Assembly (NCBI GenBank): GCA_965204865.1
Contig: OZ242027.1
Coordinates: forward strand, 2,243,986 to 2,307,985
DNA: 64,000 nucleotides
Reading direction: 5' to 3'
Origin: Dehalococcoidia bacterium
Lineage (GTDB): Bacteria > Chloroflexota > Dehalococcoidia > Lucifugimonadales > UBA3495
Positions 4,602 through 63,080 of the stretch are shown here, one piece after another. The position numbers and the translations under genes were made by a program. The first letter of the stretch is position 1. Every line of letters starts with the position of its first letter. The notes beneath the pieces were generated by a model. The model made no database searches, was not told the DNA's origin, and saw nothing but the letters and a program-made list of their open reading frames with translations.

Positions 4602-4643
4602 AATTCCCTCTCCCTTGAGGGAGAGGGTTAGGGTGAGGGGGCG
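4602..4643 (-). repeat. REP-A palindromic repeat copy
   Basis: aattCCCTCTCCCttgaGGGAGAGGGTTAGGGTGAGGGggcg; convergent spacer between USP and dsbA-like gene. Confidence 0.9.
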
Positions 4644-4721
4644 CAGTCTCAAGGTTCACGGCCTTCCATTAACCAGACCCCCTGAAACGGAACGCTACCC
4701 GGTACGAACCGGAATGCCCGG

Positions 4722-5354
4722 CTACTGGCTGAGGTAGCGCTCCATCGCCTGCTTGAAGACCGGGTAGGGATGAGCGCCCGTGAACAGCAGGTTGCCCACC
4801 AGGAAGGTGGGGATGCCGTTGATGCCGTATTGCAGGGCCTCGCGGTACTGGGCAATGACCGTCTGCGAGTGGGCGCCCTGCTCCAGCGCCTTGGTCATAT
4901 CGGCCCCGTCCAGCCCCACGCTGTCGGCGATGGTTTCCAGCACCTCTATCTGGCCGATGTCCTTGCGGTCTTCCCAGAAAGCCTTGTAGGCGGCGTGGTG
5001 AAATTCCATGAACTTGCCGTGCTGCTGGGCGTACTCGGTGGCTTCCAGCGAGTAGAGAGTATTGGGAGTGCGGGACGACGGACGCATGATTAGGCCCGAG
5101 TCCCTAGCCTGGCTCCGCAGCGGCTCCGACAGTTCATCGTCGCTCTCTCCGGGGCGCTGCGGACGCTCTACTCCTTCCCGGGGAGTGTCAGGACGCAACA
5201 GGTATGCCCGGCCCTCCACCTCGATGTCAAATTCCTTGGCCAGATGGTCGACCCGTTCCAGGCCGATATAGCACCACGGTCAAATGTAGTCGTACCAGAC
5301 GGCTACCCGAACCGTGGCATGGTCGTGCTGCCCGTTATGAGTTTCCTGCGCCAT
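4722..5354 (-). CDS. DsbA/FrnE-family thiol:disulfide oxidoreductase with in-frame TGA (candidate selenocysteine, U-P-W-C)
   Basis: ATG 5354 with AGGAG 8 nt upstream; frame continuous through TGA 5282-5280: ..VAVWYDYI-TGA-PWCYIGLERV.. into track ORF 4722..5219; C-terminal GIPTFLV motif of DsbA fold. Confidence 0.7.
5236..5279 (-). promoter_or_regulatory. SECIS-like hairpin immediately 3' of the in-frame TGA
   Basis: Upper stem UCGGCC(5266-5261)/GGUCGA(5253-5248), 7-nt loop UGGAACG with GG; lower stem GGUG/CAUC; starts 13 nt after UGA. Confidence 0.45.
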
Positions 5355-5380
5355 GTCAACACTCCTGGCAATCGAGAGAT

Positions 5381-5417
5381 TCTCTATCCTTGTTGGGAGA
5401 GGGTTAGGGTGAGGGCG
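5381..5417 (-). repeat. REP-A copy (left arm degenerate)
   Basis: ..ttgGGGAGAGGGTTAGGGTGAGGGcg; contains stop codon of HAD gene (TAA on minus strand at 5404-5406). Confidence 0.8.
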
Positions 5418-6123
5418 AAGTCTCGGATTCCAGCAACTCGATGATTTCGACAAGCCCCGAGATTTTGGGACAGCCTTCCACCGGCTCGTGCCAGCCGCCC
5501 CGGTCCAGCAGCGCGGCCTGCATCCCCATGTCACGAGCGCCGGCCACGTCGGACCGGACTTGATCCCCGATATGCAGCACTTCCTCGGGCGCCGCCTCGG
5601 CGCGGCGCAGGGCTTCCTGGAATATGGGCGGGTGAGGCTTCTCTATCCCTGCTTGAACCGAGGTTACAGAAAAGTCGAGGATGCCTTCCAGCCCGGCCCG
5701 GCGAATCAGCGGCTCAAGGTCAGCCCGCAGGTTGGTTATCACCCCCAGCCGGTAGCCGCGCTCCCGCAGTGCTTCCAACGTGGGCATGGTGTCTTCAAAG
5801 GGAGTGAATTCCTTGGGAACGGCGATAGCCAGCCCCCATATCTGTCGTGCCAGTACGGTGGTCACCGGAACCCCGGCAGTCTCGAGGATGACCTGCTCAT
5901 ACTCGGCGAAAAATTCCAGCCGCCGCTCCGGTGAGCGCAGCGACAGCGGTTCATCTTCGTTGGCGCGGTTGAACAGAATGTCGGCCTTGGCGTAGCCCCG
6001 GCGAATCGCCTCTCGTGAAACACTCAGGCCCATCTTCCAGCAAGCGACCCGCTGAATTTCCTCCAGCGGGGGCCAGAACTTGACCAGCGTATTGTAAAAG
6101 TCGAAGGTGACAACCCTTATCAT
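5404..6123 (-). CDS. HAD-superfamily hydrolase
   Basis: MIRVVTFDFYNTLV (motif I), GDQVRSDVAGARDMGM (motif IV); C-terminal ..SETSPSP* is translated REP-A. Confidence 0.8.
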   Translation of the reverse strand: MIRVVTFDFYNTLVKFWPPLEEIQRVACWKMGLSVSREAIRRGYAKADILFNRANEDEPLSLRSPERRLEFFAEYEQVILETAGVPVTTVLARQIWGLAIAVPKEFTPFEDTMPTLEALRERGYRLGVITNLRADLEPLIRRAGLEGILDFSVTSVQAGIEKPHPPIFQEALRRAEAAPEEVLHIGDQVRSDVAGARDMGMQAALLDRGGWHEPVEGCPKISGLVEIIELLESETSPSP

Positions 6124-6360
6124 TCCATTTACCGGCCGGCCCCCAGCGGAGCGATTGTTGATATTGAGCCTGAGCAATATTGGTGTTCAGCAGACATGCC
6201 AGTCTAACACGGCACAGACTCCAATGCGAACCGCGATATGCCTAGTGACGCTAGGCATTGGCAGCCGGTTGGTATATCAGTATTCTTGACCCACCGGAGG
6301 GTATTTCCCCGGAACCCATACGCAGGAATGCAGCCGCCTCACGCTGCCGCGAGGACAAGG

Positions 6361-6822
6361 ATGAAGCTCGCCATCGGCGCAGACCACGCCGGATTCGACC
6401 TCAAGGCACAGATTGTTCCCTGGCTGGAATCATCAGGGCATCAGGTAGTGGACATCGGAGCGCACGCCCTCGACCCCGCCGACGATTTCCCCGACTTTGC
6501 CGCCGCCGTGGCCCGTTCTGTTAACGGCGGTCAAGCGGAAAGGGGCGTTATGATTTGCGGCAGCGGCGTCGGGGCCAGCATCGCAACCAACAAGGTTGGC
6601 GGAATCCGCGCCTGCCTGTGCCACGACACCTACACCGCACGGCAGGGCGTGGAGCATAACGATATGAACGTCCTCTGCCTGGGCGGGCGAGTCATCGGCA
6701 TCGAGACCGCCAAAGAGGTCATCGCGACCTTCATCGGCGCGGAGTTCATGCCCGAAGACCGCTTCCAGCGGCGAATAGACAAGGTGACCGAAATCGAGGC
6801 CGACAGGCTGAAGGTAAGCTAA
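6361..6822 (+). CDS. rpiB: ribose-5-phosphate isomerase B
   Basis: MKLAIGADHAGFDLK.., ICGSGVGASI.., CLCHD; GAGGA SD upstream of ATG 6361. Confidence 0.9.
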   Translation: MKLAIGADHAGFDLKAQIVPWLESSGHQVVDIGAHALDPADDFPDFAAAVARSVNGGQAERGVMICGSGVGASIATNKVGGIRACLCHDTYTARQGVEHNDMNVLCLGGRVIGIETAKEVIATFIGAEFMPEDRFQRRIDKVTEIEADRLKVS

Positions 6823-6840
6823 ACTGAAAGGCGTCTGAAA

Positions 6841-6880
6841 AATCCCCTCTCCCTCCGGGGGAGGGCTAGGGTGGGGCGTC
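6841..6880 (-). repeat. REP-A copy
   Basis: aatCCCCTCTCCCtccGGGGGAGGGCTAGGGTGGGGcgtc; convergent spacer rpiB/otsB. Confidence 0.85.
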
Positions 6881-6892
6881 CTCTGCCCGCCC

Positions 6893-7696
6893 CTAAAGTT
6901 CTTCCAGGATCAGGCTCATCGCTTCCGAGACCTCACCGGGCGAGTCCAACTGGTGCAGCGCCACCGTGCCTTGGCGGGGCTCTCCCACAAACACCGCCAG
7001 TCCGCCCATTTCCTGTACCGCCCGGAAGCCGTCCTCGTCCGTCTGGTCGTCCCCGAAATAGACCGGGAAGGGACTGTCCCCTAGATTCCCGCTTTCGCGG
7101 GAATGACGGTGAATTTTCTCAATGGCCTTGCCCTTGTCCCATGCGATGGCCGGTCGCACCTCCACCACCATCTTGCCCTTCGTCAGCCGTAGCTGCCCGC
7201 TCTCGACGTAAGGCTCGGCTGTTGCCCTCACCACGTCATCCACTTCGCCCGTCAGCAGTTCGGGCGCGGCTCGGTAGTGGACGCTCAGGGTCAGCCCCTT
7301 GTGTTCCACGATTACGCCGGGAACATGGGCCAGCGCATTGGCCAGAGCTGTCCGAACTTGGTTCAGAACCTCCCGGGCAGCGATAGCTTGAGGATGCGTG
7401 AAATCCAGCCCCGGGCCGCGAATCTCCATACCGTGGTTGCCGGCGTGGATGAGACCTTGAATATCAGCCATAACAGCCAGGTCGGCCACGCTGCGACCGC
7501 TGACGATGCCTGCAATGCAACGAGGGTGCGCCGCCAGCGCCGTTAGCAGTCCCCGCGATTCCTCGGACAGCAGGGCGTCCTCGGGGCGGGCCACGATAGG
7601 CGTCAGCGTGCCGTCGTAGTCGAAGAGAAGAAGTATGCGGTCAGTACGGAACAGGCGCGCGCGAACCGACGGCCAGATGTTCAGCAGATGGGCCAT
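6893..7696 (-). CDS. otsB: trehalose-6-phosphate phosphatase
   Basis: HAD motif LLLFDYDGTLTPIV, C-terminal FGDDQTDEDGF; 8 nt downstream of otsA stop; contains in-frame REP-B copy. Confidence 0.85.
   Translation of the reverse strand: MAHLLNIWPSVRARLFRTDRILLLFDYDGTLTPIVARPEDALLSEESRGLLTALAAHPRCIAGIVSGRSVADLAVMADIQGLIHAGNHGMEIRGPGLDFTHPQAIAAREVLNQVRTALANALAHVPGVIVEHKGLTLSVHYRAAPELLTGEVDDVVRATAEPYVESGQLRLTKGKMVVEVRPAIAWDKGKAIEKIHRHSRESGNLGDSPFPVYFGDDQTDEDGFRAVQEMGGLAVFVGEPRQGTVALHQLDSPGEVSEAMSLILEEL
7082..7109. repeat. REP-B palindrome copy inside otsB CDS
   Basis: tagATTCCCGCtttcGCGGGAATgacgg; translated in otsB frame as ..HRHSRESGNLG.. Confidence 0.85.
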
Positions 7697-7704
7697 CAGG
7701 GGGC

Positions 7705-9213
7705 TTAGATGCTGCGGATGGGGTGGCGGGCGCGGCGCCCTACCTGCATCATATCCACCAGCGAGCGCGCCGCCCACTTGTAGATATTGTTCTCCTGCAC
7801 TACGCCCCTCATATTGGCCATCCGCACCTGGCGTTCCTGGCGGGGCATTTCCACCGCTTCCCGGATGGAGTCGCCGAACCGCTCCATGTCGTAGGGGTTG
7901 ACGATCAGCGCGTCGGTGAGTTCCAGGGCCGCGCCGGTGAAGGGGCTGAGAATCAGCACGCCGTCGTGGTCGTAGCGGCTGGCGACGTATTCCTTGGCCA
8001 CCAGGTTCATGCCGTCGTGCAGGGAGCTTACCACGCAGAAGCGGGCCAGCCTCCGCAGGGCCATCAGCGTCAGGTTGGGCAGGTCGGTGGGCATATACAT
8101 TATGGGCTGCCAGTCATCGGTGGCGAAGCGGCTGTTGACGTCCTCCAGCAGCCGGTCAATCTGGTCCGCAAGCTGCTGGTAGGCGATGATGTTGGTCCGG
8201 CTCATAACGCCGGCCTGAACGAACACCACCTTGCCGATGTATTGCGGGTTCCGCTCCAGAAAACGGTTGATGGCCCGGATGCGGTGGGGAATGCCCTTGG
8301 TATAATCAATGCGGTCTATACCCAGGCCGACTATCTTGTCCTGCAACCCCCACTCGACGGTGAGCCGTTCCATCTCCTGGGCGACCTCGACGCTTTGGGC
8401 GTCGATTTCCAGTTGGTCGAAGTCAACGCTGATGGGAACCGGGCGCACCAGGGTTGAGTCATCGCGGTGATATATCAGGCTGTATTCCTCGTGGACGCGA
8501 GCGCCCAGTATCCGCGATGCGGCTTCCATGAAGTTGTTGCAGTGGTCGCCGATGTGGAAGCCCAGCATATCGTTGCCCAGCAGTCCGTCCAGCAGCTCCT
8601 CCTGCCAAGGGCAGATGCGGAAAACTTCGTAGTTGGGCCAGGGGATGTGCCAGAACTGGCCGGTAATCACATCGGGTTCAAGGTCGCGGAGGAAACGGGG
8701 CAGCAGGGCCAGATGATAGTCCTGGATGAACACGGCGGCCGGGCGCCCGTCCATTTCCTCGCTGACCTGCTGGGCGAAGGCGCGGTTGACGGCGGTATAG
8801 GTTTCCCAGTCGGACTGCTCGAAGGTGGGTTCTATGAAGGCGTTGTGGCACAGCGGCCACAGCCCCTCGTTGGAAACGCCGTAGTAGTAACCCTGCTGCT
8901 GCTCGGCGGTCAGCCACACCAGGCGGAGGGTGTAGGATGGGTCGTCGGGCGGCACCATCACGCGGTTCTTGTCGTCCACCGCCAGGTAGTCGCCGGGGCC
9001 GCCTCCATGGGCAATCCACGTTCCGGCGCACTCCTGCATCAGCGGGTCAATGGCGGTGGTGACGCCTCCGGCAGGGGTGCTGACGCGCAATTCCCCGTCA
9101 ACCAGCTCGTGAACGTAAGGTTGACGGTTGGAAACGACAATTATCCGGTAGTCGCCAATCTCCCGGTTGACCAGACGCCGCAACCGATCTCTGGTCCAGA
9201 TGGGCTCTCGCAC
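7705..9213 (-). CDS. otsA: alpha,alpha-trehalose-phosphate synthase (GT20)
   Basis: 502 aa; VVSNRQPY, GLWPLCHN, IQDYHLALLP motifs; GTG start 9213 preceded by GAGGGAG. Confidence 0.9.
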   Translation of the reverse strand: MREPIWTRDRLRRLVNREIGDYRIIVVSNRQPYVHELVDGELRVSTPAGGVTTAIDPLMQECAGTWIAHGGGPGDYLAVDDKNRVMVPPDDPSYTLRLVWLTAEQQQGYYYGVSNEGLWPLCHNAFIEPTFEQSDWETYTAVNRAFAQQVSEEMDGRPAAVFIQDYHLALLPRFLRDLEPDVITGQFWHIPWPNYEVFRICPWQEELLDGLLGNDMLGFHIGDHCNNFMEAASRILGARVHEEYSLIYHRDDSTLVRPVPISVDFDQLEIDAQSVEVAQEMERLTVEWGLQDKIVGLGIDRIDYTKGIPHRIRAINRFLERNPQYIGKVVFVQAGVMSRTNIIAYQQLADQIDRLLEDVNSRFATDDWQPIMYMPTDLPNLTLMALRRLARFCVVSSLHDGMNLVAKEYVASRYDHDGVLILSPFTGAALELTDALIVNPYDMERFGDSIREAVEMPRQERQVRMANMRGVVQENNIYKWAARSLVDMMQVGRRARHPIRSI

Positions 9214-9237
9214 CTTCTCCCTCTGTTACCACCAGCG

Positions 9238-9303
9238 TTCCCTCTCCCTACGGGGGAGGGTTAGAGCCTGCCCCCGCGAAAGCGGGGGGTGGGGGCGTCC
9301 CCT
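9238..9303 (-). repeat. composite REP-A copy carrying a nested GC hairpin
   Basis: CCCTCTCCCtacGGGGGAGGGTTAG + [agcctgCCCCCGCgaaaGCGGGGgg] + TGGGGGCGTCCCC; divergent spacer otsA/hydrolase. Confidence 0.8.
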
Positions 9304-9507
9304 CTCGCTCCTGCCTCACTCGATTCTGGCACACGGATGAAGAAAGGTCAAACCGGGTGGGCTGCGGGGACGTTTCAGGCGTGATACCATATCGCCAGAG
9401 GCGCCGATATGCCGCCATTTCAGTTGCTGCGTCCCCCGCATACACGGCCCGCGAGATGCTGGGCCTGCCGAAGCAGCAACAAAAGTCTTGCCGATAGAGG
9501 AGGCCCC

Positions 9508-10308
9508 ATGGCTCTGTTTGTTCGCCGAGACCTCACAGACAGCGTCCCAACTCCCGAAGGGAATATGCACTTCGTCAAGAAGGGCGCCGGCTATCCCGTG
9601 GTGCTGCTGCACCCGCTGGGAACGTCGGTCTGGACTTGGGAGTACGTCATGGACGCCATCGCCCAAGACTACACGGTCTACGCTTTCGATATGCTGGGGC
9701 ATGGCGATTCCGACAAGCCACAGCGCCACTTCAACCTCCCCGACTACGCCAAGGCCCTGGACGAAGCCTGCCAAGTCTTGAACATCCACCGGGCGCACGT
9801 CGTGGGCAACTCGGTGGGCGCCGTCCTGGCCACGGAAACGGCGGCCAGCTTCCCCGACCGGGTGGACAAGCTGACGCTGGTGGGCGCGCCGGTGTGGAAT
9901 GCCTTCACCGCCAAGGAACGGCTGGCCGACACCTTGGCCCAGTACGATGACGAAGGTCTGCCCAAGCCCCGAACTCTCCAGGACTTGAAGGACGCCACCA
10001 CCTTCGCCGAGCCGACCGAAGAGTGGCTGGACAAGAACAACAACAGCCGCGCCAAGGCCGGCCCTTGGGTGCGCAACCTGATGGAGTCCCTGGCGTACTA
10101 CGACATCATGTCTCGCCTGCCGCTCATCAAGGCGTCGTCAACCATGGTGCTCTACGGCGAGATTGACCGCCTGCGCGACGGCGAGGAGTTGCTGCACAAC
10201 AACATCGTCAACGCCCGCAAGGTCATCCTGACCGGCATCGGCCATATCCCGCAGGTGGAAGACCCAGAGGGCTTCCTGGGCGCACTGCTACCCTTCCTGG
10301 CGGAGTAG
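9508..10308 (+). CDS. alpha/beta-fold hydrolase
   Basis: GAGGAGG SD 5 nt before ATG 9508; HPLGTS oxyanion region, nucleophile elbow GNSVGA, C-terminal GHIPQVE. Confidence 0.85.
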   Translation: MALFVRRDLTDSVPTPEGNMHFVKKGAGYPVVLLHPLGTSVWTWEYVMDAIAQDYTVYAFDMLGHGDSDKPQRHFNLPDYAKALDEACQVLNIHRAHVVGNSVGAVLATETAASFPDRVDKLTLVGAPVWNAFTAKERLADTLAQYDDEGLPKPRTLQDLKDATTFAEPTEEWLDKNNNSRAKAGPWVRNLMESLAYYDIMSRLPLIKASSTMVLYGEIDRLRDGEELLHNNIVNARKVILTGIGHIPQVEDPEGFLGALLPFLAE

Positions 10309-10314
10309 GTCAAG

Positions 10315-11247
10315 ATGACTTCAGCCGGACGGCATCCGTTGCGCTTGATGGAGACCTGGCGCTCCATCTTCTACACGCCCATCTACGTCTCGGTGGCGGG
10401 CGGGTTCCTGGAGCGGGAAGGACTGGACGTGGAGTTCAGCACCTGTCCGCCCCAGTTCCCTCATCCGCTGAGCGCCCTGCATCACGACGCCGCCGACATC
10501 GTGCAGAGCGGAATCATGCGCTCCATCATCGCCTCCGACTGGGGCGCGGAAACCGTGCCGCTGCACTTCGCCAAGATAAACTCGCGCGACGGCTTCTTCA
10601 TCCTGGGGCGGCAACCCCAGGTTCCCTTCGACTGGGAATCCCTGCGCGGGGCGAGGGTGATACCTGTTGGGTTTTCACCTATGCCCTGGGCGTCCTTCCA
10701 ATACGCCCTGCGCCGTCATGGTCTCGAACCCTCAGACCTGGACCTGCGGGCCGGGCTTTCGCTGGACGACGCCGTGGCCGCCTTCCGCGACGGTCAGGCC
10801 GAGTACGTCCACGTGGCTGAGCCCGTGGTGCAGCAGTTGATTGCCGACGGCGCCGGTCACCTGCTGACCGCCCTGGGGCCCGAGAACGGCCACCTGGCAT
10901 ACAGCTCCTTCGCCGCCACTCACCGCTACCTGTCAGAGCGGGAGGACACGGCAGGCCGGTTCACCCTGGGCTTCGCCCGGGCCCTTCATTGGCTATCCTC
11001 GGCTGAACCGGGCGAGGTTGCTGAAACCGTATCGGACTTCTTCCCCGGAGCTTCGCAGGAGGTATTGGCTGCCTCCATCGCCAGGTACCAGGAACAGGAA
11101 CAATGGCCGGTTAATCCCGTCTTGGGACGGCCGGAGTACGACAACCTGCACGACATACTGCTGGCAGCCGGAATGTGCCGCGAGCGGCAGCCCTATGAGA
11201 AAGTCGTGCGCACCGACATCGCAGAGGCTGCCGTGGCCGCGCTCTAG
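10315..11247 (+). CDS. NMT1/THI5-like (ABC substrate-binding-like) protein, no obvious signal peptide
   Basis: 310 aa; periplasmic-binding-protein-like pattern IFYTPIYVSVAGGFLEREGLDV..; function uncertain. Confidence 0.6.
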   Translation: MTSAGRHPLRLMETWRSIFYTPIYVSVAGGFLEREGLDVEFSTCPPQFPHPLSALHHDAADIVQSGIMRSIIASDWGAETVPLHFAKINSRDGFFILGRQPQVPFDWESLRGARVIPVGFSPMPWASFQYALRRHGLEPSDLDLRAGLSLDDAVAAFRDGQAEYVHVAEPVVQQLIADGAGHLLTALGPENGHLAYSSFAATHRYLSEREDTAGRFTLGFARALHWLSSAEPGEVAETVSDFFPGASQEVLAASIARYQEQEQWPVNPVLGRPEYDNLHDILLAAGMCRERQPYEKVVRTDIAEAAVAAL

Positions 11248-11382
11248 GCCGTTCCCGAATCCGATCGGCGCTCATCGGGGTGTTGCTGACGCCGGTATGT
11301 TGTAGAATGTCTCTTTAACGGAGAACGGATGCACCCCACCTGGTAGGGGCGGACCTTTAGGCAAGTTCAGGAGGAGGCCGTT

Positions 11383-12429: not shown

Positions 12430-12432
12430 ATT

Positions 12433-13770
12433 ATGACGGCACACTCGGCGGTTCGCACCATCACCAGCCCGGCCAAGCTCGGAGGCGAGTTGGCAGTGCC
12501 GGGCGACAAATCCATCTCGCACCGCTCCCTCATCCTCAACGCCATGGCCCACGGCACGGCCCGCGTTACCGGGCTCTCCAACGGCGAGGATGTTATGTCC
12601 ACCATGGCCTGTCTGCGTGGCATGGGGGTCGAAATCACCCAGGGGGACAACCCCGGCGAGTATACCGTGATTGGCCGGGGGCCGACGCTGGAAGAGCCGT
12701 CGGACATTCTCGACGCGGGCAACAGCGGCACTTCCATGCGCTTGCTCTCCGGGCTTATGGCGGCGCAGCCCTTCCTGTCGGTACTGACCGGCGACGCCTC
12801 GCTGCGCTCCCGCCCCATGCGCCGCATCGTTGAGCCGTTGCAACGTATGGGCGCCCAGGTCACGGGCCGACAGGAAGGCTCCCTGGCCCCGCTGGTCATC
12901 CGCGGCGGTTCCCTGCGAGGCATCGAATATGACCTGCCCGTTGCCAGCGCCCAGGTCAAGTCCTGCATCCTCCTCGCCGGACTGTCCGCCGACGGCGACA
13001 CCGTGATTCACCAGCCTGCCCTGTCCCGGGACCACACCGAGCGCATGGTCACCGCCATGGGCGCGACCGTTCAGGAAGACGGGCTAGACCTGTCGTTGCG
13101 CCCCGGCCTCCTGCGGGCGGTGGACATCTCCGTGCCTGGCGACATCAGCTCGGCGGCCTTCTGGATTGTGGCCGGCCTGTGCCATCCCGATTCGCGGGTC
13201 CTGGTGCGCGGCGTCGGCCTGAACCCCAGCCGCACCGGCATCATTGATGCGCTGCTCGCCATGGGCGCCGGGGACAGCCTGCTCCTGGTGAACCAACGCA
13301 CCGAGGGCGGGGAGCCGGTGGCCGACCTGCTGGTCACGCCGGGGCAACTGCGCGGCGCCGAAATCGGCGGCGATATGATTCCTCGCATTCTGGACGAAGT
13401 GCCAATTCTGGCGGTGGCCGCCTGCTTCGCCGAGGGGGAAACGGTCATCCGCGACGCCTCCGAGCTGCGGGTCAAGGAATCCGACCGCATCGCCACCACC
13501 GTCGGGGAGCTGTCGCGCTTGGGGGCCAGCATCGAGGCCCGCGAGGACGGCATGGTCATACGCGGGACCGGAAGGCTGACCGGCGCGGCCTGCCAGTCCC
13601 ACGGCGATCACCGCCTGGCCATGGCTATGGCCGTCTGCGGATTGCTAGCCGACGGCGAGACGGAGGTGCATGGCGCGGCCGACGCTTCTGTATCCTACCC
13701 CGGCTTCTGGGAACACCTGGACACGCTTGCAAACGCCTCCAGCTTCCCTCTCCCTCCGGGGGAGGGTTAG
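12433..13770 (+). CDS. aroA: 3-phosphoshikimate 1-carboxyvinyltransferase (EPSP synthase)
   Basis: LPGDKSISHRSLIL, DAGNSGTSMRLL, KESDRI motifs; last residues SFPLPPGEG* are translated REP-A. Confidence 0.92.
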   Translation: MTAHSAVRTITSPAKLGGELAVPGDKSISHRSLILNAMAHGTARVTGLSNGEDVMSTMACLRGMGVEITQGDNPGEYTVIGRGPTLEEPSDILDAGNSGTSMRLLSGLMAAQPFLSVLTGDASLRSRPMRRIVEPLQRMGAQVTGRQEGSLAPLVIRGGSLRGIEYDLPVASAQVKSCILLAGLSADGDTVIHQPALSRDHTERMVTAMGATVQEDGLDLSLRPGLLRAVDISVPGDISSAAFWIVAGLCHPDSRVLVRGVGLNPSRTGIIDALLAMGAGDSLLLVNQRTEGGEPVADLLVTPGQLRGAEIGGDMIPRILDEVPILAVAACFAEGETVIRDASELRVKESDRIATTVGELSRLGASIEAREDGMVIRGTGRLTGAACQSHGDHRLAMAMAVCGLLADGETEVHGAADASVSYPGFWEHLDTLANASSFPLPPGEG

Positions 13771-13784
13771 GTGGGGGCGTCCCC
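13744..13784 (-). repeat. REP-A copy
   Basis: ttCCCTCTCCCtccGGGGGAGGGTTAGGTGGGGGCGTCCCC; spans aroA stop (TAG 13768-70) and annotated gmk GTG. Confidence 0.85.
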
Positions 13785-14415
13785 TTTGACGTCCCGTATA
13801 CCCGAAGCCAGCCCACCGCCGCCCCTGCTGGTGGTGCTGTCCGGGCCTTCGGGCGCAGGCAAGGACGCGGTGCTGGCGGAACTGCGGAAGCTGGACCGCC
13901 CCTGGCACTTCGCCGTAACCGCCACCACCCGCCCCATGCGCCCCGGCGAACGCGACGGCGCAGACTACATCTTCCTCGACCCGGACACCTTCGCCCGGAT
14001 GCGGGAGCGCGACGAGTTCATAGAGTGCGCCGAGGTCTACGGACGTTGGTACGGCGTGCCGCGCAGCCAGGCCCGCGACGCCCTGCGCTGCGGCAAGGAC
14101 GTTATCCTAAAGATAGACGTTCAGGGCGCAGCCACCATCCGCCGCATGGCACCGGAAGCGTTGCTCATATTCCTGATACCGCCGTCGGTGGCCGACCTGC
14201 GGCAACGGTTGCAGGGCCGTATGACCGAGTCCGCAGAAGACTTGGAACGCCGTCTTGGGACAGCGGCGGAAGAACTGTCTCGGCTTCACGAATACGACTA
14301 TCGCGTGGTCAACGAAAACGGAAACGGTGGCCTGGCGCAGGCCGCAGCCGACATAGACGCCATCATCGCCGCCGAGAAGTGCCGCGTAACACCCCGACTG
14401 GTGCAGTTGTTATAA
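13771..14415 (+). CDS. gmk: guanylate kinase
   Basis: P-loop LSGPSGAGKD, TTRPMRPGERDGADYIF; start uncertain (GTG 13771 lies in REP-A; TTG 13786 alternative). Confidence 0.85.
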   Translation: MGASPLTSRIPEASPPPPLLVVLSGPSGAGKDAVLAELRKLDRPWHFAVTATTRPMRPGERDGADYIFLDPDTFARMRERDEFIECAEVYGRWYGVPRSQARDALRCGKDVILKIDVQGAATIRRMAPEALLIFLIPPSVADLRQRLQGRMTESAEDLERRLGTAAEELSRLHEYDYRVVNENGNGGLAQAAADIDAIIAAEKCRVTPRLVQLL

Positions 14416-14442
14416 TAGACAGGACTTACGCAGTTAAACAAA

Positions 14443-14482
14443 AATCCCCTCCCCCTTGAGGGGGAGGGCTAGGGTGGGGGTG
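14443..14482 (-). repeat. REP-A copy
   Basis: aatCCCCTCCCCCttgaGGGGGAGGGCTAGGGTGGGGGtg; spacer gmk/lipA. Confidence 0.85.
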
Positions 14483-14546
14483 AAATCCCTCGCACCAGAC
14501 GCCGTATCCAACTGTGTAAGTCTTATCCTGTATATCCTGTCCATCC

Positions 14547-20614: not shown

Positions 20615-20655
20615 GACGCCCTCACCCTAACCCTCTCCCTCTGGGAGAGGGGATT
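20615..20655 (+). repeat. REP-A copy (near consensus)
   Basis: GACGCCCTCACCCTAACCCTCTCCCtctGGGAGAGGGgatt; spacer pncB/etf. Confidence 0.9.
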
Positions 20656-22544: not shown

Positions 22545-22549
22545 GAGTA

Positions 22550-22587
22550 CGCCGCCACCCTAACTCTCCCCCGGAGGGAGAGGGAAG
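22550..22587 (+). repeat. REP-A copy (diverged)
   Basis: cgccgCCACCCTAACTCTCCCCCggaGGGAGAGGGaag; spacer etf/prpD-family. Confidence 0.75.
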
Positions 22588-24953: not shown

Positions 24954-25122
24954 TAGCTAATAGGAGAGTCTTTCGATTCTTCGTCTGAACTGTGATTTTT
25001 CTGATTCCGGGATTGCCATGATTGGGAAATCATGTTAATCCGTTAATCACATGAATCACAGTTCAGACAGTTCCTGTCGGAATCGGCTTTGCAATCGTCC
25101 TGTCCGTCTGACAATCCTTTAC

Positions 25123-26433: not shown

Positions 26434-26474
26434 GACGCTCTCACCCTAACCCTCTCCCTCTGGGGGAGGGAATT
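26434..26474 (+). repeat. REP-A copy
   Basis: GACGCTCTCACCCTAACCCTCTCCCtctGGGGGAGGGaatt; spacer between the two ACAD genes. Confidence 0.9.
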
Positions 26475-27670: not shown

Positions 27671-27709
27671 GTTCCCTCTCCCTTGAGGGAGAGGGTTAGG
27701 GTGAGGGTG
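27671..27709 (-). repeat. REP-A copy
   Basis: gttCCCTCTCCCttgaGGGAGAGGGTTAGGGTGAGGGtg. Confidence 0.9.
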
Positions 27710-27769
27710 ATAAGGTAGTGCAGGCAGGCCGCCGCGAAATCCGAAGTCCTTTCAACCGGAGAGTTAAAG

Positions 27770-27977: not shown

Positions 27978-28017
27978 GACACCCCCACCCTAACCCTCCC
28001 CCTAAGGGGGAGGGAAT
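27978..28017 (+). repeat. REP-A copy
   Basis: gacaCCCCCACCCTAACCCTCCCCCtaaGGGGGAGGGaat. Confidence 0.85.
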
Positions 28018-28659: not shown

Positions 28660-28696
28660 TACGCCCTCACCCTGACCCTCTACCCAAGGGATAAGG
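28660..28696 (+). repeat. REP-A copy (degenerate hairpin)
   Basis: tacGCCCTCACCCTGACCCTCTACCCaaGGGATAAGG. Confidence 0.7.
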
Positions 28697-28721
28697 AACC
28701 GAACGACGGGAGGTATGCGTT

Positions 28722-43090: not shown

Positions 43091-43129
43091 TTCACCCTCA
43101 CCCCAACCCCTCCCTTGAGGGAGAGGAAG
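43091..43129 (+). repeat. REP-A copy
   Basis: ttCACCCTCACCCCAACCCCTCCCttgaGGGAGAGGaag. Confidence 0.8.
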
Positions 43130-44028: not shown

Positions 44029-44076
44029 AATTCCCTCTCCCTCTGGGAGAGGGAGAGGGTTAGGGTGAGGGCGTAC
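44029..44076 (-). repeat. REP-A copy (extra GGGAGA unit)
   Basis: aattCCCTCTCCCtctGGGAGAGGGAGAGGGTTAGGGTGAGGGcgtac. Confidence 0.9.
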
Positions 44077-44931: not shown

Positions 44932-44971
44932 GACGCCCTCACCCTAACCCTCTCCCTCTGGGAGAGGGGAC
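44932..44971 (+). repeat. REP-A copy (consensus)
   Basis: GACGCCCTCACCCTAACCCTCTCCCtctGGGAGAGGGgac. Confidence 0.9.
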
Positions 44972-52296: not shown

Positions 52297-52363
52297 GCCC
52301 TCACCCTAACCCTCTCCCTTTGGGAGAGGGAAAATGGGTAATCCTTTCCCAGAGGGAGAAGGA
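52297..52363 (+). repeat. REP-A copy plus adjacent degenerate hairpin
   Basis: GCCCTCACCCTAACCCTCTCCCtttGGGAGAGGGaaaa ... TCCTTTCCCagaGGGAGAAGGA; spacer gnd/zwf. Confidence 0.85.
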
Positions 52364-52379
52364 ACTATCAGTGGCCGGG

Positions 52380-53325: not shown

Positions 53326-53368
53326 CGCCTCGCCCTAACCATATCCCTATCCCTCAAGGGATAGGGGG
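53326..53368 (+). repeat. REP-A-related copy (variant hairpin)
   Basis: cgcctcGCCCTAACCatATCCCTATCCCTcaaGGGATAGGGgg; spacer pgi/gnd. Confidence 0.7.
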
Positions 53369-53381: not shown

Positions 53382-55028
53382 CTAAAATTCGTCGAGGAGG
53401 CGGCGCAGCCCGCTGACGGCGTCGTCGCCGAGGTTGACGGCCACCAGGCGGCGGCCAAGGTTGGTGAGCGCCTGGTAGTCGCCGATGGCCTGAGCAGCGG
53501 CCAGAACGTCGAAGCCGTACTGCTGCCCTGGAATCGGCAGTTCTTGGTAGCGGTCTACAGTCAGTTGCAAGTACAGACCGGAGCCGGGGCCGCCCTTGTG
53601 AAGCTGCCCGGTAGAGTGCAGGTAGCGAGGCCCGTAGCCGACTGTGGTGGCTATGCGGCGCCGCTCCACTATGCGCGACCGCAGTTCGTCCAACAGGGCG
53701 TCTGCCTCCGGGTCTGGCGGGAAGTAGGACATTATGGCTAAGTAATCGCCCGGGTGGGCTTGGTCGAGTAAGGCCGCCAAGGAACCCGATGCAGCGCGCT
53801 CCGGCAGATGTCCCTGTCTCAGGAAAGCGTCCAACAGGCTGTCGGTGTTGTCCTTCGCGCCCTGCACGTCAGGCTGGTCGAAGGGATGAATGTCCAGCAT
53901 TGAACCGGCTATCGCAGTCGCGTATTCCCAGCGGAAGAACTCAGCGCCCAGAGAGTAGTGGTCGGCCAATTCCAGCCGCGCCACCGGATGCCCGGCGGTT
54001 TCCAACCGCTCGACCGCTTCATCCGACGCCCTCACCCTGGCCCTCTCCCAGTGGGAGAGGGAACTGTCCTCGGCTCGCAGGTATACGAACAGCCGGTCAT
54101 CGGCGTAGCAGTCCGGGGGTAGCACGGGCTCCCCGGCCACCGGAACGATGCCCCGACCTTCTTTGCCCAGGCTTTCGGCAATCATCTGCTCTACCCAAAG
54201 TCCAAAGCTGTCTATGGGCGGTGGGGTAATCAGCGTTACCTTGTCCCGTCCGGCCAGGGTCATCGCGCCGAGCAATGCGCCCAGGCGGAGGCCGGGGTTG
54301 GCGTCGTCATCGGAGCCCAAGCACTGGTCGCGCATTTCAGCAGCGGAGTCTAGCAATCGGACTACCTCTATACCGGTCAGGGCCGCAGGCAGCATCCCGA
54401 ACCACGACAACACCGAGTAGCGCCCGCCAATATCCGCCGGGTTCAGGAACACCCGGCGGAAGCCTGCTTCTTGGCCTAGACGCTCCAGGGGGGTACCAGA
54501 GTCGGTGATGGCGACGAAGTTGGCGCCTGCCCGGCCATCGGGCCGCGCCAATTCCGCCAGTTCGCGAAAATACCGGTAAAAGGATAGCGTTTCAATGGTG
54601 CCGCCGGACTTCGAGGAAACGATGAAGAGGGTATGCGCCGGGTCAATGGCGTCGGAAACGGCAGTCACCTGCCCGGGGATGGTGGAGTCCAGCAGGGTGA
54701 GCCGGGGGTTTTCCTTCGGGATGAGCTGGCTGGCGAGAAAGGAGCGGCGCAGGACCTCCGGCCCAAGACTGCTGCCGCCCATCCCCAGCAACACAACGTC
54801 GCGGAAACCCTCAGCGCAGATTTCGTTTACGAAGGCCGATAACTCCGGCAAATGGGGGCGCAGGAAATCCCCGGCGTCCAGCCAGCCCAGCCGGTCAGAG
54901 ATTTCCCGCGGGTCGGAACGCCAGACGGTATAGTCATGCTCCCATATACGCTGGTGGACGCGCTGCCTTAGCAGGTCATCTAGGGCCTGCTCCGTTATCT
55001 CGGACATCCTATGCCCGGATTCGCTCAC
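53382..55028 (-). CDS. pgi: glucose-6-phosphate isomerase
   Basis: SIS motif LLGMGGSSLGPEV; GTG 55028 two nt after tkt stop (ATG 55007 alternative); contains in-frame REP-A copy. Confidence 0.85.
   Translation of the reverse strand: MSESGHRMSEITEQALDDLLRQRVHQRIWEHDYTVWRSDPREISDRLGWLDAGDFLRPHLPELSAFVNEICAEGFRDVVLLGMGGSSLGPEVLRRSFLASQLIPKENPRLTLLDSTIPGQVTAVSDAIDPAHTLFIVSSKSGGTIETLSFYRYFRELAELARPDGRAGANFVAITDSGTPLERLGQEAGFRRVFLNPADIGGRYSVLSWFGMLPAALTGIEVVRLLDSAAEMRDQCLGSDDDANPGLRLGALLGAMTLAGRDKVTLITPPPIDSFGLWVEQMIAESLGKEGRGIVPVAGEPVLPPDCYADDRLFVYLRAEDSSLSHWERARVRASDEAVERLETAGHPVARLELADHYSLGAEFFRWEYATAIAGSMLDIHPFDQPDVQGAKDNTDSLLDAFLRQGHLPERAASGSLAALLDQAHPGDYLAIMSYFPPDPEADALLDELRSRIVERRRIATTVGYGPRYLHSTGQLHKGGPGSGLYLQLTVDRYQELPIPGQQYGFDVLAAAQAIGDYQALTNLGRRLVAVNLGDDAVSGLRRLLDEF
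54025..54066 (+). repeat. REP-A copy inside pgi coding sequence
   Basis: GACGCCCTCACCCTGGCCCTCTCCCagtGGGAGAGGGaact; read in pgi frame as ..DSSLSHWERARVRAS.. Confidence 0.85.
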
Positions 55029-55030
55029 AA

Positions 55031-59650: not shown

Positions 59651-59684
59651 TGTTCGCTCCTTAGCATCTATTGAGGGGAAGGCT

Positions 59685-59723
59685 TTCACCCTCACCCTAA
59701 CCCTCTCTCAAGGGAGAGGGGAC
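59685..59723 (+). repeat. REP-A copy
   Basis: tttCACCCTCACCCTAACCCTCTCTCaaGGGAGAGGGgac. Confidence 0.85.
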
Positions 59724-59734
59724 AAGTGGGTTCG

Positions 59735-60907: not shown

Positions 60908-61035
60908 TGGCTCCCGGCACCCTTCCAGGCGGCGATTGCCCGACATTATATCAACAACATCCATACTGCGGACGTGTGGTAACATTTCAGCAGATTTTTC
61001 CTTGCATAGCGAGGGAGCCAAGGTGAGGGCGCACT

Positions 61036-61803
61036 ATGTCAGTCGCCAACGATACTCTTGAAAGGCTGTCCACGAAGGCGAAAATCGGGCTGGTGGTGGT
61101 GAGCGCCTCGACGGTATCAGAGCTTCGCTACCCGAAAGTCGTGCCGGATGTCGGGTTCTTCGCCAGCAGGATGATGCTGGCCGGCGACGGGCTGGAGGCT
61201 TTGCTGGAGATGGAGCACAACTCGTCGCGGGCGGTGCAGGAGCTGGCCTCGGCGGGGATGGACTCCATCGCCTACTGCTGCACGGTCAGCGGAGCGCAGC
61301 GCGGCCTGGCGAAGGACCGGGAGTTCTGCGCCAACATGGAGCGGCAATGGGGGGCGCCCACAACCTCGACGATGCTGGCGGCAGCCGAGGCGTTGCAGCA
61401 CCTGGGCATCGGCCGGGTTGTGCTGACCAGCCCCTACCCGCACAGCTACCACGAGGCAGAGAGCCGATACTTGGCTGAGGCCGGGATCGAGACCGTAGCG
61501 GCTTCGGGAATGGGGTTTGTAACCGCCGCAGAGTTCGCCGCAGTTTCGCCGGAGGAGATATACCGCTTTGCGCTGGAAGCGTGGCAACAGAACGGCGGAG
61601 AGGCCGATGGACTGTTCATAAGCTGCATGAACTTCGACGCCATGGCCGCGGCCCAGGCATTGGAGAACGCCATCGGCAAGCCGGTGGTGACCTCGCACTC
61701 GGCCACGCTGTGGCGGGCGCTGGCGCTGGCCGGGGTTGCCGAGCCGGTACACGGTTACGGGCGGCTGCTGGCGGAACGCCGGGAAGGGACGCCCTCACCC
61801 TAA
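61036..61803 (+). CDS. Asp/Glu-racemase-superfamily protein (maleate isomerase / arylmalonate decarboxylase-like)
   Basis: Two Cys contexts AYCCTVSG and FISCMNF; stop TAA 61801-03 lies in REP-A. Confidence 0.75.
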   Translation: MSVANDTLERLSTKAKIGLVVVSASTVSELRYPKVVPDVGFFASRMMLAGDGLEALLEMEHNSSRAVQELASAGMDSIAYCCTVSGAQRGLAKDREFCANMERQWGAPTTSTMLAAAEALQHLGIGRVVLTSPYPHSYHEAESRYLAEAGIETVAASGMGFVTAAEFAAVSPEEIYRFALEAWQQNGGEADGLFISCMNFDAMAAAQALENAIGKPVVTSHSATLWRALALAGVAEPVHGYGRLLAERREGTPSP

Positions 61804-61828
61804 CCCTCTCCCAAGGGGAGAGGGAATT
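61788..61828 (+). repeat. REP-A copy (consensus)
   Basis: GACGCCCTCACCCTAACCCTCTCCCaagGGGAGAGGGaatt immediately followed by ATG 61829. Confidence 0.9.
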
Positions 61829-62485
61829 ATGACAATCAAGGAGGAAACAACAAGAATGACTACTGCCGACCGCCTGAACGCCATGCCGCTAGGTGAGGCG
61901 ATGTTCACCCAGCGGGCAATCCGCCGGTTCAAGAAGGACCAGATACCGGACGATGTGCTGGAAGACATCATGCAGGCGACCATCCGGGCGCCCAACGGCG
62001 GCAACAACCAGCAGTGGCGCTTCATCCTGGTGAAGGACGCTGAAATGCGGAGCAAGCTGGCCGAGCTATATCACGAAGCCTGGTGGGCCAAGCGGGCCGA
62101 TGCGGGCATCATGGGGCCGGAGGACATTCCGCCCGGAAAGAGCTCAATGCGCTCGGCGATGCGGATGGCCAACGAAATAGGCGACGCGCCGGTGATGGTG
62201 CTGGTATGCGCGACGGCCAAGGGGGCGCAGGCCATGGGGTCGGTCATCCCCTCGGCGCAGAATATGCTGCTGGCGGCGCGGGCCTTCGGCGTGGGCGGCA
62301 CCATCGCCACGCTCCACCCGGTGGTGGAGGAGCGGGTGCATAAGATGTTCGGCATCCCGGACGACGCCCAGGTGGTGTACTGTATGCCGCTGGGCTATCC
62401 ACGGGGCGAGTTCGGCTCGGTGCGGCGGCTTCCGCTAACGGAGGTCTGCGGCGTGGACGGGTGGGGCAACAACTACCCCGGCTAG
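61829..62485 (+). CDS. nitroreductase-family protein
   Basis: ..FTQRAIRRFKKDQIP.., ..APNGGNNQQWRFILV..; ATG 61829 abuts REP-A (ATG 61856 alternative). Confidence 0.8.
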   Translation: MTIKEETTRMTTADRLNAMPLGEAMFTQRAIRRFKKDQIPDDVLEDIMQATIRAPNGGNNQQWRFILVKDAEMRSKLAELYHEAWWAKRADAGIMGPEDIPPGKSSMRSAMRMANEIGDAPVMVLVCATAKGAQAMGSVIPSAQNMLLAARAFGVGGTIATLHPVVEERVHKMFGIPDDAQVVYCMPLGYPRGEFGSVRRLPLTEVCGVDGWGNNYPG

Positions 62486-62500
62486 GCGTGGATGCTATAA

Positions 62501-62521
62501 GGGCGGGTTTGGAATCCGCCC
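62501..62521. terminator. GC hairpin between convergent genes
   Basis: GGGCGGGTT tgg AATCCGCCC (one G-T pair); weak U-tract. Confidence 0.35.
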
Positions 62522-62587
62522 CTAAGATGTGAAAGGACAGATGGTTTAGACATTCACTTACACATCGGCGAACCGGAGATTGCCAAC

Positions 62588-63025
62588 CTAGCTGAACAGA
62601 TCCCGAATCCGGTCGAGGAAGCCGCCGCGGCTTGCGCCGCGCTCCATGAAGCGGGCCCACTGCTGCTCAGCGGACTCGGAGCGGCGGAGGTCCCTGGCCC
62701 GTTGCTTCATCAGGTCCAGCACCCGTTCTTCCTCTCCCTTATCCAGCCAGTAGCCGTGGTTGTTGGGGCAGTGGTCTATGGGCAGGTTGTGGGCGCGGTA
62801 GTTGAAGACGTCCATAGCCGCTCCGCAGTGGGGGCAGGGGCGTTCGCCGGAGCGCCGGGCGTATTCCCGCATTCCCTTAAGGATTTCGTCGCGGTTGGCG
62901 GTGTCTTCCAGGAGGTCCAGCTCGTCGAAGTCGAGCCACAGGCCGCGGCACTGCGGGCAGTGGTCGACTTCCAGCCCGCGGTATTTGCGCTCGTCTAACG
63001 CTACGTTGCAGTCAGGACAGTTCAT
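62588..63025 (-). CDS. zinc-ribbon (zf-TFIIB-type) domain protein, two CxxC...CxxC units
   Basis: MNCPDCNVAL..HCPQCRGLWLD and PCPHCGAAM..HCPNNHGYWLD. Confidence 0.8.
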   Translation of the reverse strand: MNCPDCNVALDERKYRGLEVDHCPQCRGLWLDFDELDLLEDTANRDEILKGMREYARRSGERPCPHCGAAMDVFNYRAHNLPIDHCPNNHGYWLDKGEEERVLDLMKQRARDLRRSESAEQQWARFMERGASRGGFLDRIRDLFS

Positions 63026-63054
63026 TGTCGACGCTCCGGTGAATTCAGTGTGGG

Positions 63055-63080
63055 GACGTCCTCACCCTAACCCTCCCCCA
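63055..63080 (+). repeat. REP-A half copy (right arm missing)
   Basis: GACGTCCTCACCCTAACCCTCCCCCa then unrelated AT-rich sequence. Confidence 0.7.

Follow-up and report, generated by a model that had tools for sequence, protein, structure and literature searches.

The 64,000 nucleotides of contig OZ242027.1 of a Dehalococcoidia bacterium that were analysed here (the window; positions are counted from its first letter) raise the question what the short palindromic repeat is that recurs in so many of their intergenic spacers, and how it came to be there. The original prediction, in which the repeat was called REP-A, took it for a new element of the repetitive extragenic palindromic (REP) type. 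This identification does not hold. A full-text literature search with the core sequence of the repeat led to Holder et al. 2015 (PMC4666352) and Kaplan et al. 2016 (PMC5100583), and REP-A is almost certainly the motif that has been published already under the names BoxC, PIT, TMECO and HPG1. Holder et al. describe the TMECO intrastrand-triplex motif, formerly BoxC and PIT (potential intrastrand triplex; earlier work by Bachellier and by Hoyne & Maher is cited there), as CCCTCNCCC N3-6 GGGNGAGGG N3 GGGNGAGGG (PMC4666352), and the same sequences appear in Kaplan et al. as the "G-quadruplex-hairpin-duplex switch" HPG1/HPG2 (PMC5100583). The window copies agree with Table 1 of PMC4666352. The published TMECO pattern has 7 exact matches in the window, with 0 expected, and the remaining copies either deviate from it by 1-5 substitutions or belong to a G-type variant. 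Moreover, the window copy at 27672-27710 does not differ, over 37 nt, from the copy located between hrpB and mrcB in E. coli K-12 (~164,597-164,631), and a 41-nt query had matches in 5,401 of 5,426 E. coli genomes, with a median of 15 places in each. To our knowledge, the BoxC/PIT/TMECO elements have been known since the 1990s without an assigned function or mode of spread.

Read on its G-rich strand, REP-A measures about 42 nt and consists of three 9-nt arms, CCCTCTCCC - loop - GGGAGAGGG - TTA - GGGTGAGGG. Arms 1 and 2 form a Watson-Crick hairpin and arm 3 mirrors arm 2. The C-rich arm and the hairpin of the original prediction are this very arrangement of arm 1, arm 2 and mirroring arm 3, seen on the opposite strand, and the C-rich arm, far from only flanking the hairpin, co-varies with it and provides a third arm for a potential intrastrand triplex or G-quadruplex. 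A purine-motif triplex needs triads of the type C-G.G, T-A.A or T-A.T, with arm 3 mirroring arm 2 (PMC4666352), and the consensus provides a valid triad at nine out of nine positions. Arms 2 and 3 together also constitute a canonical G-quadruplex motif (G3+ N1-7 G3+ N1-7 G3+ N1-7 G3+), of which the window has 19; 14 of these are copies of REP-A. The G-type variant (GGGGGAGGG...GGGTGGGGG) falls outside the published TMECO pattern and is new. It is common to the window and two of the other loci that we collected (L007 and L102), which gives a hint, no more, of a Chloroflexota/Dehalococcoidia origin.

The density of the repeat in the window is evident irrespective of the method. Both the hairpin pattern CCCTCTCCC-N3-6-GGGAGAGGG and the 25-nt C-rich arm (with at most 3 mismatches) were compared to 100 dinucleotide-preserving shuffles; the former has 8 exact matches and the latter 13 matches, with 0 expected in both cases. 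Repeat finding on the window recovered the same repeat families. A profile hidden Markov model built from the copies (nhmmer) returned 22 copies on the dominant strand, from 4603 to 63081, 14 of them on the + and 8 on the - strand (the strand of a copy being the one on which the C-rich consensus reads 5' to 3'), which is exactly the number, the division over the orientations and the span that had been read from the sequence originally. A covariance model (CM), run with the filters off, gave 17 full-length copies at E<1e-7, together with partial or degenerate matches at 9240, 43091, 53331, 63055 and 52343; a further match, at 60992-61033, may be a relic. Of the 22 copies, 9238, 52339 and 63056 are truncated. 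The profile density is thus 22 per 64 kb, or one copy per 2.9 kb, in line with the dense interspersed repeat of about one copy per 3 kb that had been claimed, and the strict-pattern density is 7 per 64 kb, or ~109 per Mb. The stretch without copies between 28.7 and 43.1 kb is not significant (rough Poisson estimate ~0.15, with position allowed for). The genome of Enterobacter asburiae LF7a comprises about 4.8 Mb. The published record is 143 copies in this strain (PMC4666352), which at that genome size puts the published maximum at ~30 per Mb and makes the window ~3-4x denser.

A comparison of the copies connects the three arms to each other. For the hairpin we surveyed 147 distinct copies, taken from the window and from ~100 loci of many phyla, with the pair counts derived from the covariance-model alignment; a MAFFT alignment, in which copies with a 4-nt loop were mis-registered, was set aside. 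In this survey 98.2% of the cells were paired and only one of the nine pairs ever changed on both sides, in 6 cells. The 9-bp hairpin that had been proposed is supported, and it is real as a structure: where the loop is longer, the stem is extended at its top by complementary pairs in excess of chance (1.18 per loop vs 0.36 +/- 0.075 in shuffles). The accompanying claim that selection acts on structure rather than on sequence put the emphasis wrongly, however, the 9-bp core being near-invariant in sequence across phyla. Covariation of the hairpin arms between copies was likewise confirmed in part: three window copies (14445, 27979 and 53330) are fully compensated, whereas three others (6841, 13744 and 22548), in which arms 2 and 3 have changed, have G-T in the hairpin and one has C-A.

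The covariation extends to the third arm. The IMG/VR database was scanned for exact variants of arms 2 and 3. At triad 6, the standard combination A/A was found at least 120 times and the double variant G/G 30 times, with the two single variants at 2 and 2; arm 1 had the matching C in 27 of the 30 G/G copies and T in 100 of the 120 A/A copies among the matches listed. At triad 4, the standard combination was again found at least 120 times, the double variant 13 times (~6 genuine) and the single variants 1 and 0 times. Seven of these 13 double variants represent one unrelated phage sequence that lacks arm 1, and four of the other six have the matching arm 1 CCCCCTCCC. A change from T to A in arm 3 of the same triad, which is compatible with a triplex, was seen 36 times. 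Among copies that had not been chosen by the search seed, the changed cells fitted the mirror register in 36% of cases vs 7% for the direct register. In addition, the copy of L007 has a full T-A.A replacement at triad 3, and in the window copies 14445 and 27979 the change involves all three arms. A quadruplex or a plain hairpin would predict none of this three-arm covariation, whereas a triplex, in the purine form of the G strand or the pyrimidine form of the C strand, would predict all of it. A covariation analysis was not found in PMC4666352.

The placement of the copies was evaluated on a gene map obtained from Pfam scans of the long open reading frames (ORFs) in the window. As had been proposed, copies occur in about a third of the spacers and in all three spacer types: 20 of the 52 spacers (38%) have at least one copy, 17 of them between co-directional genes, two between convergent genes and one between divergent genes. 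Between co-directional genes the C-rich form is present in the mRNA 9 times and the G-rich form 9 times, and the orientation of the repeat is indeed independent of the direction of transcription. The description as intergenic is correct for 21 of the 22 copies, which are extragenic or located at gene ends, and incorrect for the one at 54026-54064, which lies within a coding sequence. Most copies are located in short spacers (52-130 nt) and take up nearly all of their length, copies are often found 10-40 nt ahead of a start codon, and neither a class of genes nor a fixed distance to genes stands out for the copies in the window.

Several copies have become part of the genes that they border. 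The stop codon of aroA is the TAG of TTAGG in copy 13744, and that of the Amdase gene the TAA of CCCTAA in copy 61789, at a place where the last eight codons of the orthologues are different ones. A single nucleotide separates the end of copy 52296 from the ATG of zwf, and the same holds in two relatives. The purine-rich third arm was considered as a general Shine-Dalgarno sequence and rejected, as it fits zwf only and the other downstream genes have GGAG-type sites of their own. The intragenic copy is located in a PGI-like gene (53382-55007, - strand) of a pentose-phosphate operon, in frame, and contributes the peptide SLSHWERARVRAS. Read from the sequence, two of the three frames of the G-rich strand are closed by stop codons, and both intragenic copies seen (the second is in a relative, see below) use the single open frame.

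The orientations of the copies are clustered along the window. The first six (4603-14483) are all on the - strand, for which the chance is ~4e-4, and 14 of the 16 that follow (20615-63081) are on the + strand. This could reflect the direction of replication or the regional history. Separately, the GC skew of the window changes sign near 36 kb together with the orientation of the genes, which are mostly on the + strand before and mostly on the - strand after this point, and the coding strand is C-rich on both sides. The skew is thus an effect of the transcribed strand and not a replication signal; because it follows gene orientation, it is uninformative about replication.

The instability of the repeat became apparent from a comparison of the window, between 41 and 64 kb, with three syntenic loci from metagenome assemblies (L122, L124 and L126; synteny over 15-22 kb). 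The closest relatives are in metagenome assemblies; a tblastn search with window proteins against 120 named genome loci gave no orthologues, the best hit having 42% identity. In the syntenic stretch 10 copies were counted for the window, 4 for L122, 3 for L124 and 3 for L126, at identities to the PGI protein of the window of 89%, 79% and 78%, respectively, and the sites of the copies in these relatives coincide with those in the window only in part. For instance, the gnd-zwf spacer contains 1.7 copies in the window, one in L122 and in L126 and none in L124, where it measures 14 nt. Copies 59686, 61789 and 63056 are specific to the window, and L122 has extra copies that are absent from it, namely downstream of zwf and, as a second in-frame copy (10457-10496 of L122, encoding NSLSLRGGVGVGAS), in another loop of PGI. 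In the hydrolase-MDMPI spacer the window copy is in the opposite orientation to those of L124 and L126. In an alignment of 60 PGI-like homologues, the loop in which the window protein has the peptide encoded by the repeat is short in the more distant ones, and so is the loop at the other insert place. In-frame copies are present in two different loops in some relatives and absent in others. The filled sites look like a replacement of diverged sequence and not like a clean insertion, and for that reason insertion is our interpretation of them. The active spreading or maintenance that had been deduced from the density is made plausible by these differences in presence and absence, although a mobilising agent was not identified.

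The copies themselves also bear marks of their origin. Copies 44029 and 53330 have internal tandem duplications of 6 nt (GGGAGA and GGGATA), and a partial copy stands in tandem at 52339-52365. The truncated, tandem and duplicated copies suggest error-prone copying, or slippage within the G-rich arms. In the window, the type of loop is linked to the right flank: a TTGA loop goes with TGAA or TGAT after arm 3, and a 3-nt loop with CGTC. The combination of TTGA and TGAA occurs in other taxa too. This linkage suggests subfamilies that were copied from distinct source copies.

Two other features of the syntenic relatives were noted. In the spacer before a luciferase-like monooxygenase gene, orthologous to window 59657-59734, the relatives have three direct repeats of the type TTGCG(N)C (L122 5286-5348, L124 4811-4873, L126 5299-5349), possibly a regulator site, at the place where the window has a copy of REP-A. 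In L124 there are two extra genes between PGI and gnd (11672-13056), one of which has a Cas12f1-like TNB (TnpB-type) domain; by its sequence it may be a remnant of the IS200/IS605 family, and other lineages have repeat copies in the spacer concerned.

Beyond these relatives the motif appears to be very widely distributed. The exact 21-nt core was found in at least 120 stretches of a species-representative genome collection, where by our own estimate about one or fewer would be expected by chance. Among the matches listed, the hosts belong to the Planctomycetota, Chloroflexota/Dehalococcoidia, Alpha-, Beta-, Gamma- and "Delta"-proteobacteria, Cyanobacteria, Melainabacteria, Nitrospirota, Verrucomicrobiota, Elusimicrobiota, Atribacterota and Calditrichota, and further include a bacterium of the candidate phyla radiation (CPR) and a metagenome-assembled genome (MAG) of one Micrarchaeota. 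The exact 21-mer is also present on 343 plasmids and in at least 120 viral contigs, which may include host flanks. Reports of the strict TMECO motif had been limited to 262 genomes of Proteobacteria, related G/C-rich motifs being mentioned for cyanobacteria, and the copy number of the motif is 1 vs 29 among strains of E. coli, with none in Salmonella (PMC4666352).

How the repeat acts can be approached from the transcripts. A terminator scan of 4-24 kb revealed only 3 copies that are terminator-like, with a T-run after the stem, and terminator-like sites were not enriched (17 found vs 14 +/- 4 in shuffles). The copies do not conform to intrinsic terminators, most of them being located inside runs of co-directional genes in either orientation. 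Rfam at the gathering score had 0 matches over the whole window, and a scan of the window for tRNA and tmRNA found nothing. A cis element that works at the RNA level, be it as a terminator or attenuator, a stabiliser of 3' ends, a processing site or a modulator of translation, would account for the 17 of 20 occupied spacers that are co-directional, for the frequent proximity to start codons, for the predicted RNA hairpin of -18 kcal/mol on either strand, for the three T-runs, for the third arm that abuts the ATG of zwf in three lineages and for the conservation of some orthologous copies. Nevertheless we consider it unlikely. The equal division of the orientations places the conserved third arm 5' in half of the transcripts and 3' in the other half, a function of the hairpin only leaves both the invariance and the covariation of the third arm unexplained, purine-motif triplexes do not form in RNA (PMC4666352), and the lack of enrichment of terminator-like sites and the frequent gain and loss of copies point away from it as well. 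Moreover, tests of the motif in E. coli revealed neither promoter nor terminator activity (PMC4666352). Kaplan et al. proposed that the motif regulates neighbouring genes as a G-quadruplex/hairpin/duplex switch that responds to K+ and Mg2+, and this model can appeal to the large share of REP-A copies among the canonical G-quadruplex motifs of the window and to the circular dichroism (CD) spectra and K+-dependent refolding of the E. coli sequence (PMC5100583). It needs the G-tracts only, however, and the A/T covariation of arms 2 and 3 in mirror register and the match in arm 1 are not predicted by it; neither in the window nor in E. coli (PMC4666352) is there a gene class or a fixed distance to genes, and the computed energies favour the hairpin over the quadruplex. 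The chances of this model for REP-A seem slim.

The two remaining alternatives concern the way in which the repeat is maintained. Copies that are short, palindromic, mostly extragenic, very abundant and present in both orientations are reminiscent of the REP/REPIN repeats that are spread by a RAYT (IS200/IS605-like Y1) transposase, which could be encoded elsewhere in the genome; HUH enzymes read hairpins with extra non-Watson-Crick contacts, and a relative carries TnpB-like genes beside its PGI gene. Yet none of the window ORFs that were scanned gave a hit to a Y1 transposase domain (PF01797-type), which corroborates, for the ORFs scanned with Pfam, the absence of a RAYT-like transposase noted originally. 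A conserved 5' tetranucleotide of the GTAG type is lacking, the copies being flanked by AATT/AAGTT at one end and by CGTC or TGAA at the opposite end, and there are no inverted doublets within 100 bp. The sequence is that of BoxC, which is kept separate from REP in the literature, and published work found no link to transposons (PMC4666352). The only transposase in the window is of the DDE type (gene 23980-24873, - strand), within an insertion sequence (IS) of ~1 kb at 23958-24959, which was rejected as the mobiliser of REP-A: its terminal inverted repeats (25 bp, 96% complementary) bear no relation to the motif. Altogether, mobilisation by a RAYT is highly improbable. A DNA element that benefits the host and is kept by selection in each lineage, as a site for a nucleoid or replication protein or for programmed local variability, would be in keeping with the 'adaptive instability' suggested by Holder et al. 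and with the excess of variability around copies in 56 E. coli strains (PMC4666352). Conservation at the nucleotide level across phyla and the retention of some orthologous copies speak for it too. Against this, we know of no binding protein for the BoxC/TMECO motif, truncated and decayed copies are common, and in-frame copies within genes are hard to see as designed sites. The copy number, finally, swings between close relatives (10 vs 3-4 here, and as widely in E. coli and Salmonella; PMC4666352), and we regard a benefit to the host as a poor candidate.

The explanation that we consider probable is a structure-forming interspersed repeat that acts at the level of the DNA, spreads and decays, and is occasionally co-opted. 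REP-A would represent a lineage-specific amplification of the BoxC/PIT/TMECO (= HPG1) element. As single-stranded DNA it would, by folding back two times, adopt an intrastrand purine-motif triplex with the triads C-G.G, T-A.A and T-A.T, and this fold, or the complementary pyrimidine form, would be the one that matters in vivo. Most likely it behaves as a self-propagating unstable repeat that would be copied, presumably by replicative spread, not only between genes but also into their ends and into protein surface loops. It would be tolerated where it is harmless and sometimes be put to use, for instance as a stop codon or as a purine-rich stretch before a start codon, and would not have a general role in transcription or translation. 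Action on the DNA is preferred over action on the RNA because of the 9:9 orientation, the lack of enrichment of terminators and the absence of promoter and terminator activity in E. coli.

A number of points weigh against this explanation. The covariation rests on two triads (6 and 4), part of it could stem from a few widely spread founder variants instead of repeated compensation, and it does not separate a purine triplex of the G strand from a pyrimidine triplex of the C strand. The isolated strand of the E. coli sequence folds as a triplex in vitro, but DMS (dimethyl sulphate) footprinting in vivo in E. coli and CD and nuclear magnetic resonance on double-stranded DNA gave no triplex signal (PMC4666352). 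By ViennaRNA, the scoring of which does not include triplexes, the plain hairpin (-18.3 kcal/mol) is predicted to be more stable than the G-quadruplex (-12.6). The density is that of these 64 kb. No target-site duplication was visible upon alignment of filled and empty sites, for three spacers and two intragenic sites that are all much diverged, and neither a mobilising enzyme nor a clean empty site was found. Several orthologous copies, moreover, have been kept down to a protein identity of ~80%, which also fits a maintained function.

A comparison with known systems places REP-A closest to BoxC/PIT/TMECO, with which it shares the three-arm sequence and the spacing (34-37 identical nucleotides), the mostly intergenic location in both orientations, the lack of a link to gene function and the variation in presence and copy number between relatives (PMC4666352). 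It differs in that the published hosts are proteobacterial whereas the window belongs to an unrelated uncultured lineage, in that the window lacks the inverted pairs of type A and type B, and in that it has the G-type variant and an in-frame copy within a gene, where the published copies are 'always intergenic' (PMC4666352). With HPG1/HPG2 it has in common the four G3 tracts with a 5' C-rich partner, and 14 window copies fit the quadruplex pattern (PMC5100583), but its covariation follows the rules of a triplex and no regulatory pattern was seen. It resembles the REP/REPIN repeats in being abundant, short, hairpin-forming, extragenic and present in both orientations, and is distinct from them in the absence of a RAYT (in the ORFs scanned), of a GTAG-like head and of doublets and in the possession of a third arm that REPs lack. 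The Rickettsia palindromic elements (RPE), said to have been described by Ogata et al. in 2000, are reportedly 100-150 bp long, specific to Rickettsia and inserted in frame into protein-coding genes. In behaviour alone, the addition of a surface-loop peptide by in-frame insertion, REP-A would be alike; the sequences are unrelated. Finally, it shares with the miniature inverted-repeat transposable elements (MITEs; Correia/NEMIS, ERIC, RUP) that it is a non-autonomous interspersed repeat with polymorphic presence and absence. It differs from these in that its ends are not inverted repeats of each other and do not match an IS, and in the lack of a visible target-site duplication, which is a weak point given the divergence of the sites.

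Table 1. Copies of REP-A in the window, with their genomic context and the scores of the profile (nhmmer) and the covariance model (CM)
Feature	Position	Strand	Context and evidence
Full copy	4603..4639	-	Convergent spacer Usp / DsbA-like; nhmmer E=2e-10; CM 52.0 bits; exact TMECO match
Copy with degenerate 5' hairpin arm	5380..5418	-	15-nt overlap with 3' end of HAD-hydrolase ORF; nhmmer E=2.3e-8; CM 37.0 bits
Full G-type copy (GGGGGAGGG ... GGGTGGGG)	6841..6879	-	Convergent spacer RpiB/OtsB; CM 52.2 bits
Truncated copy, hairpin and TTA, no third arm	9238..9264	-	Divergent spacer OtsA / hydrolase; nhmmer E=3.3e-6, model positions 13-39; CM 30.1 bits, positions 6-30
G-type copy at aroA end	13744..13780	-	Contains aroA stop codon; CM 51.0 bits
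Full G-type copy, three arms changed together (CCCTCCCCC / GGGGGAGGG / GGGTGGGGG)	14445..14483	-	Spacer Gmk/LipA; CM 45.8 bits
Full consensus copy	20615..20655	+	Spacer NAPRTase/ETF; kept in 96%-identical contig L001; CM 65.5 bits
Copy with G-type second and third arms	22548..22586	+	Spacer ETF/PrpD; kept in L001; CM 54.3 bits
Copy with one C-A hairpin mismatch	26435..26473	+	Between two acyl-CoA dehydrogenase genes; CM 61.1 bits
Full copy, 37 nt identical to E. coli K-12 copy	27672..27710	-	CM 49.8 bits
Full G-type copy, three arms changed together	27979..28017	+	Upstream of isochorismatase gene; CM 61.2 bits
Copy with decayed hairpin (6/9 pairs)	28660..28698	+	CM 52.4 bits
Degenerate copy	43092..43129	+	Spacer TPP enzyme / hydrolase; orthologous copy in L124; nhmmer E=1.8e-4; CM 24.2 bits
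Copy with 6-nt internal duplication (GGGAGAGGGAGAGGG)	44029..44075	-	Orientation opposite to copies in orthologous spacers of L124 and L126; CM 57.0 bits
Full consensus copy	44932..44971	+	Spacer MDMPI/ThuA; orthologous copy in L124; CM 65.1 bits
Full copy, third arm ends 1 nt before zwf start codon	52296..52333	+	Same arrangement in L122, L126; CM 60.0 bits
Partial hairpin-only copy without third arm, in tandem with 52296 copy	52339..52365	+	Absent from relatives; nhmmer E=0.008; CM E=0.87
Divergent copy: compensated hairpin (CCCTATCCC/GGGATAGGG), 6-nt duplication, decayed third arm	53330..53366	+	nhmmer E=0.013; CM 17.7 bits
Full in-frame copy within PGI-like coding sequence	54026..54064	+	Encodes SLSHWERARVRAS; CM 62.1 bits
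Copy with 2-nt deletion in second arm	59686..59722	+	Different sequence in orthologous spacers of L122, L124, L126; CM 41.2 bits
Full consensus copy at Amdase gene end	61789..61828	+	Replaces last codons, supplies TAA stop; absent from L122, L124, L126; CM 65.4 bits
Truncated copy, third and second arms only	63056..63081	+	No 5' hairpin arm; nhmmer E=5e-4, model positions 2-27; CM 16.3 bits
Possible decayed relic, outside the 22	60992..61033	-	CM 17.1 bits, E ~0.009; nhmmer E=4.7

The window has some other features that are worth recording. At 24983-25068, upstream of the acyl-CoA dehydrogenase gene at 25211, there is a 41-nt inverted repeat (80% complementary, 4-nt gap), which may be an operator or another structured element. 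Two pairs of paralogues are present. The genes at 2567-3538 and 3619-4557 are in tandem, each encoding a double universal-stress-protein domain, and have DNA blocks that are 76-79% identical (families D3, D6 and D11), and the BNR/Asp-box (Sortilin/YCF48-like) genes at 28722-29708 and 35007-36128, 6.4 kb apart, have DNA repeats in common (D7, D9, D12 and D15). The 1.1 kb at 29709-30807 is devoid of ORFs of at least 100 aa and has a GC content of 52-56% vs ~62%; Rfam at E<=0.1 gave no match on 29.6-30.9 kb, and the region may be a decayed gene or an unannotated element. A small ORF at 37247-37621 (- strand) matches the archaeal PaREP1/PaREP8 family (E=8e-10) and overlaps the start of a called hydantoinase B gene.

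While the motif as such is known, the host lineage, the density, the G-type variant, the in-frame copies within genes and the three-arm covariation are new. The host is far removed from the Proteobacteria and its motif is several-fold denser than the published record, and the exact motif is common to phyla, plasmids and viral contigs. The in-frame copies in a housekeeping enzyme, the copies that supply stop codons and the copy that abuts a start codon constitute natural "experiments", and the covariation in triplex register makes the relevance of the fold in vivo testable by comparative genomics combined with compensatory mutagenesis. For annotation there is a warning in that the copies create spurious extensions of ORFs and false "terminators" in GC-rich MAGs. 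A bolder proposal, which we put forward tentatively and hold to be rather doubtful, is that BoxC/TMECO is a pan-bacterial mobile element in which selection for an intrastrand DNA triplex maintains the three arms, the fold being what a copying machinery still to be discovered recognises; this machinery, which might be a single-strand-specific enzyme or a template switch coupled to replication, would be highly active in this lineage. If that were true, copies would be inserted even into the loops of proteins and would rewrite the ends of genes and the ribosome-binding regions, the 4.31-Mb contig would, by extrapolation from one 64-kb window, contain ~500 strict or ~1,500 profile-defined copies, and comparative data, in the form of the three-arm covariation, would for the first time testify to the importance of a DNA triplex in living bacteria.

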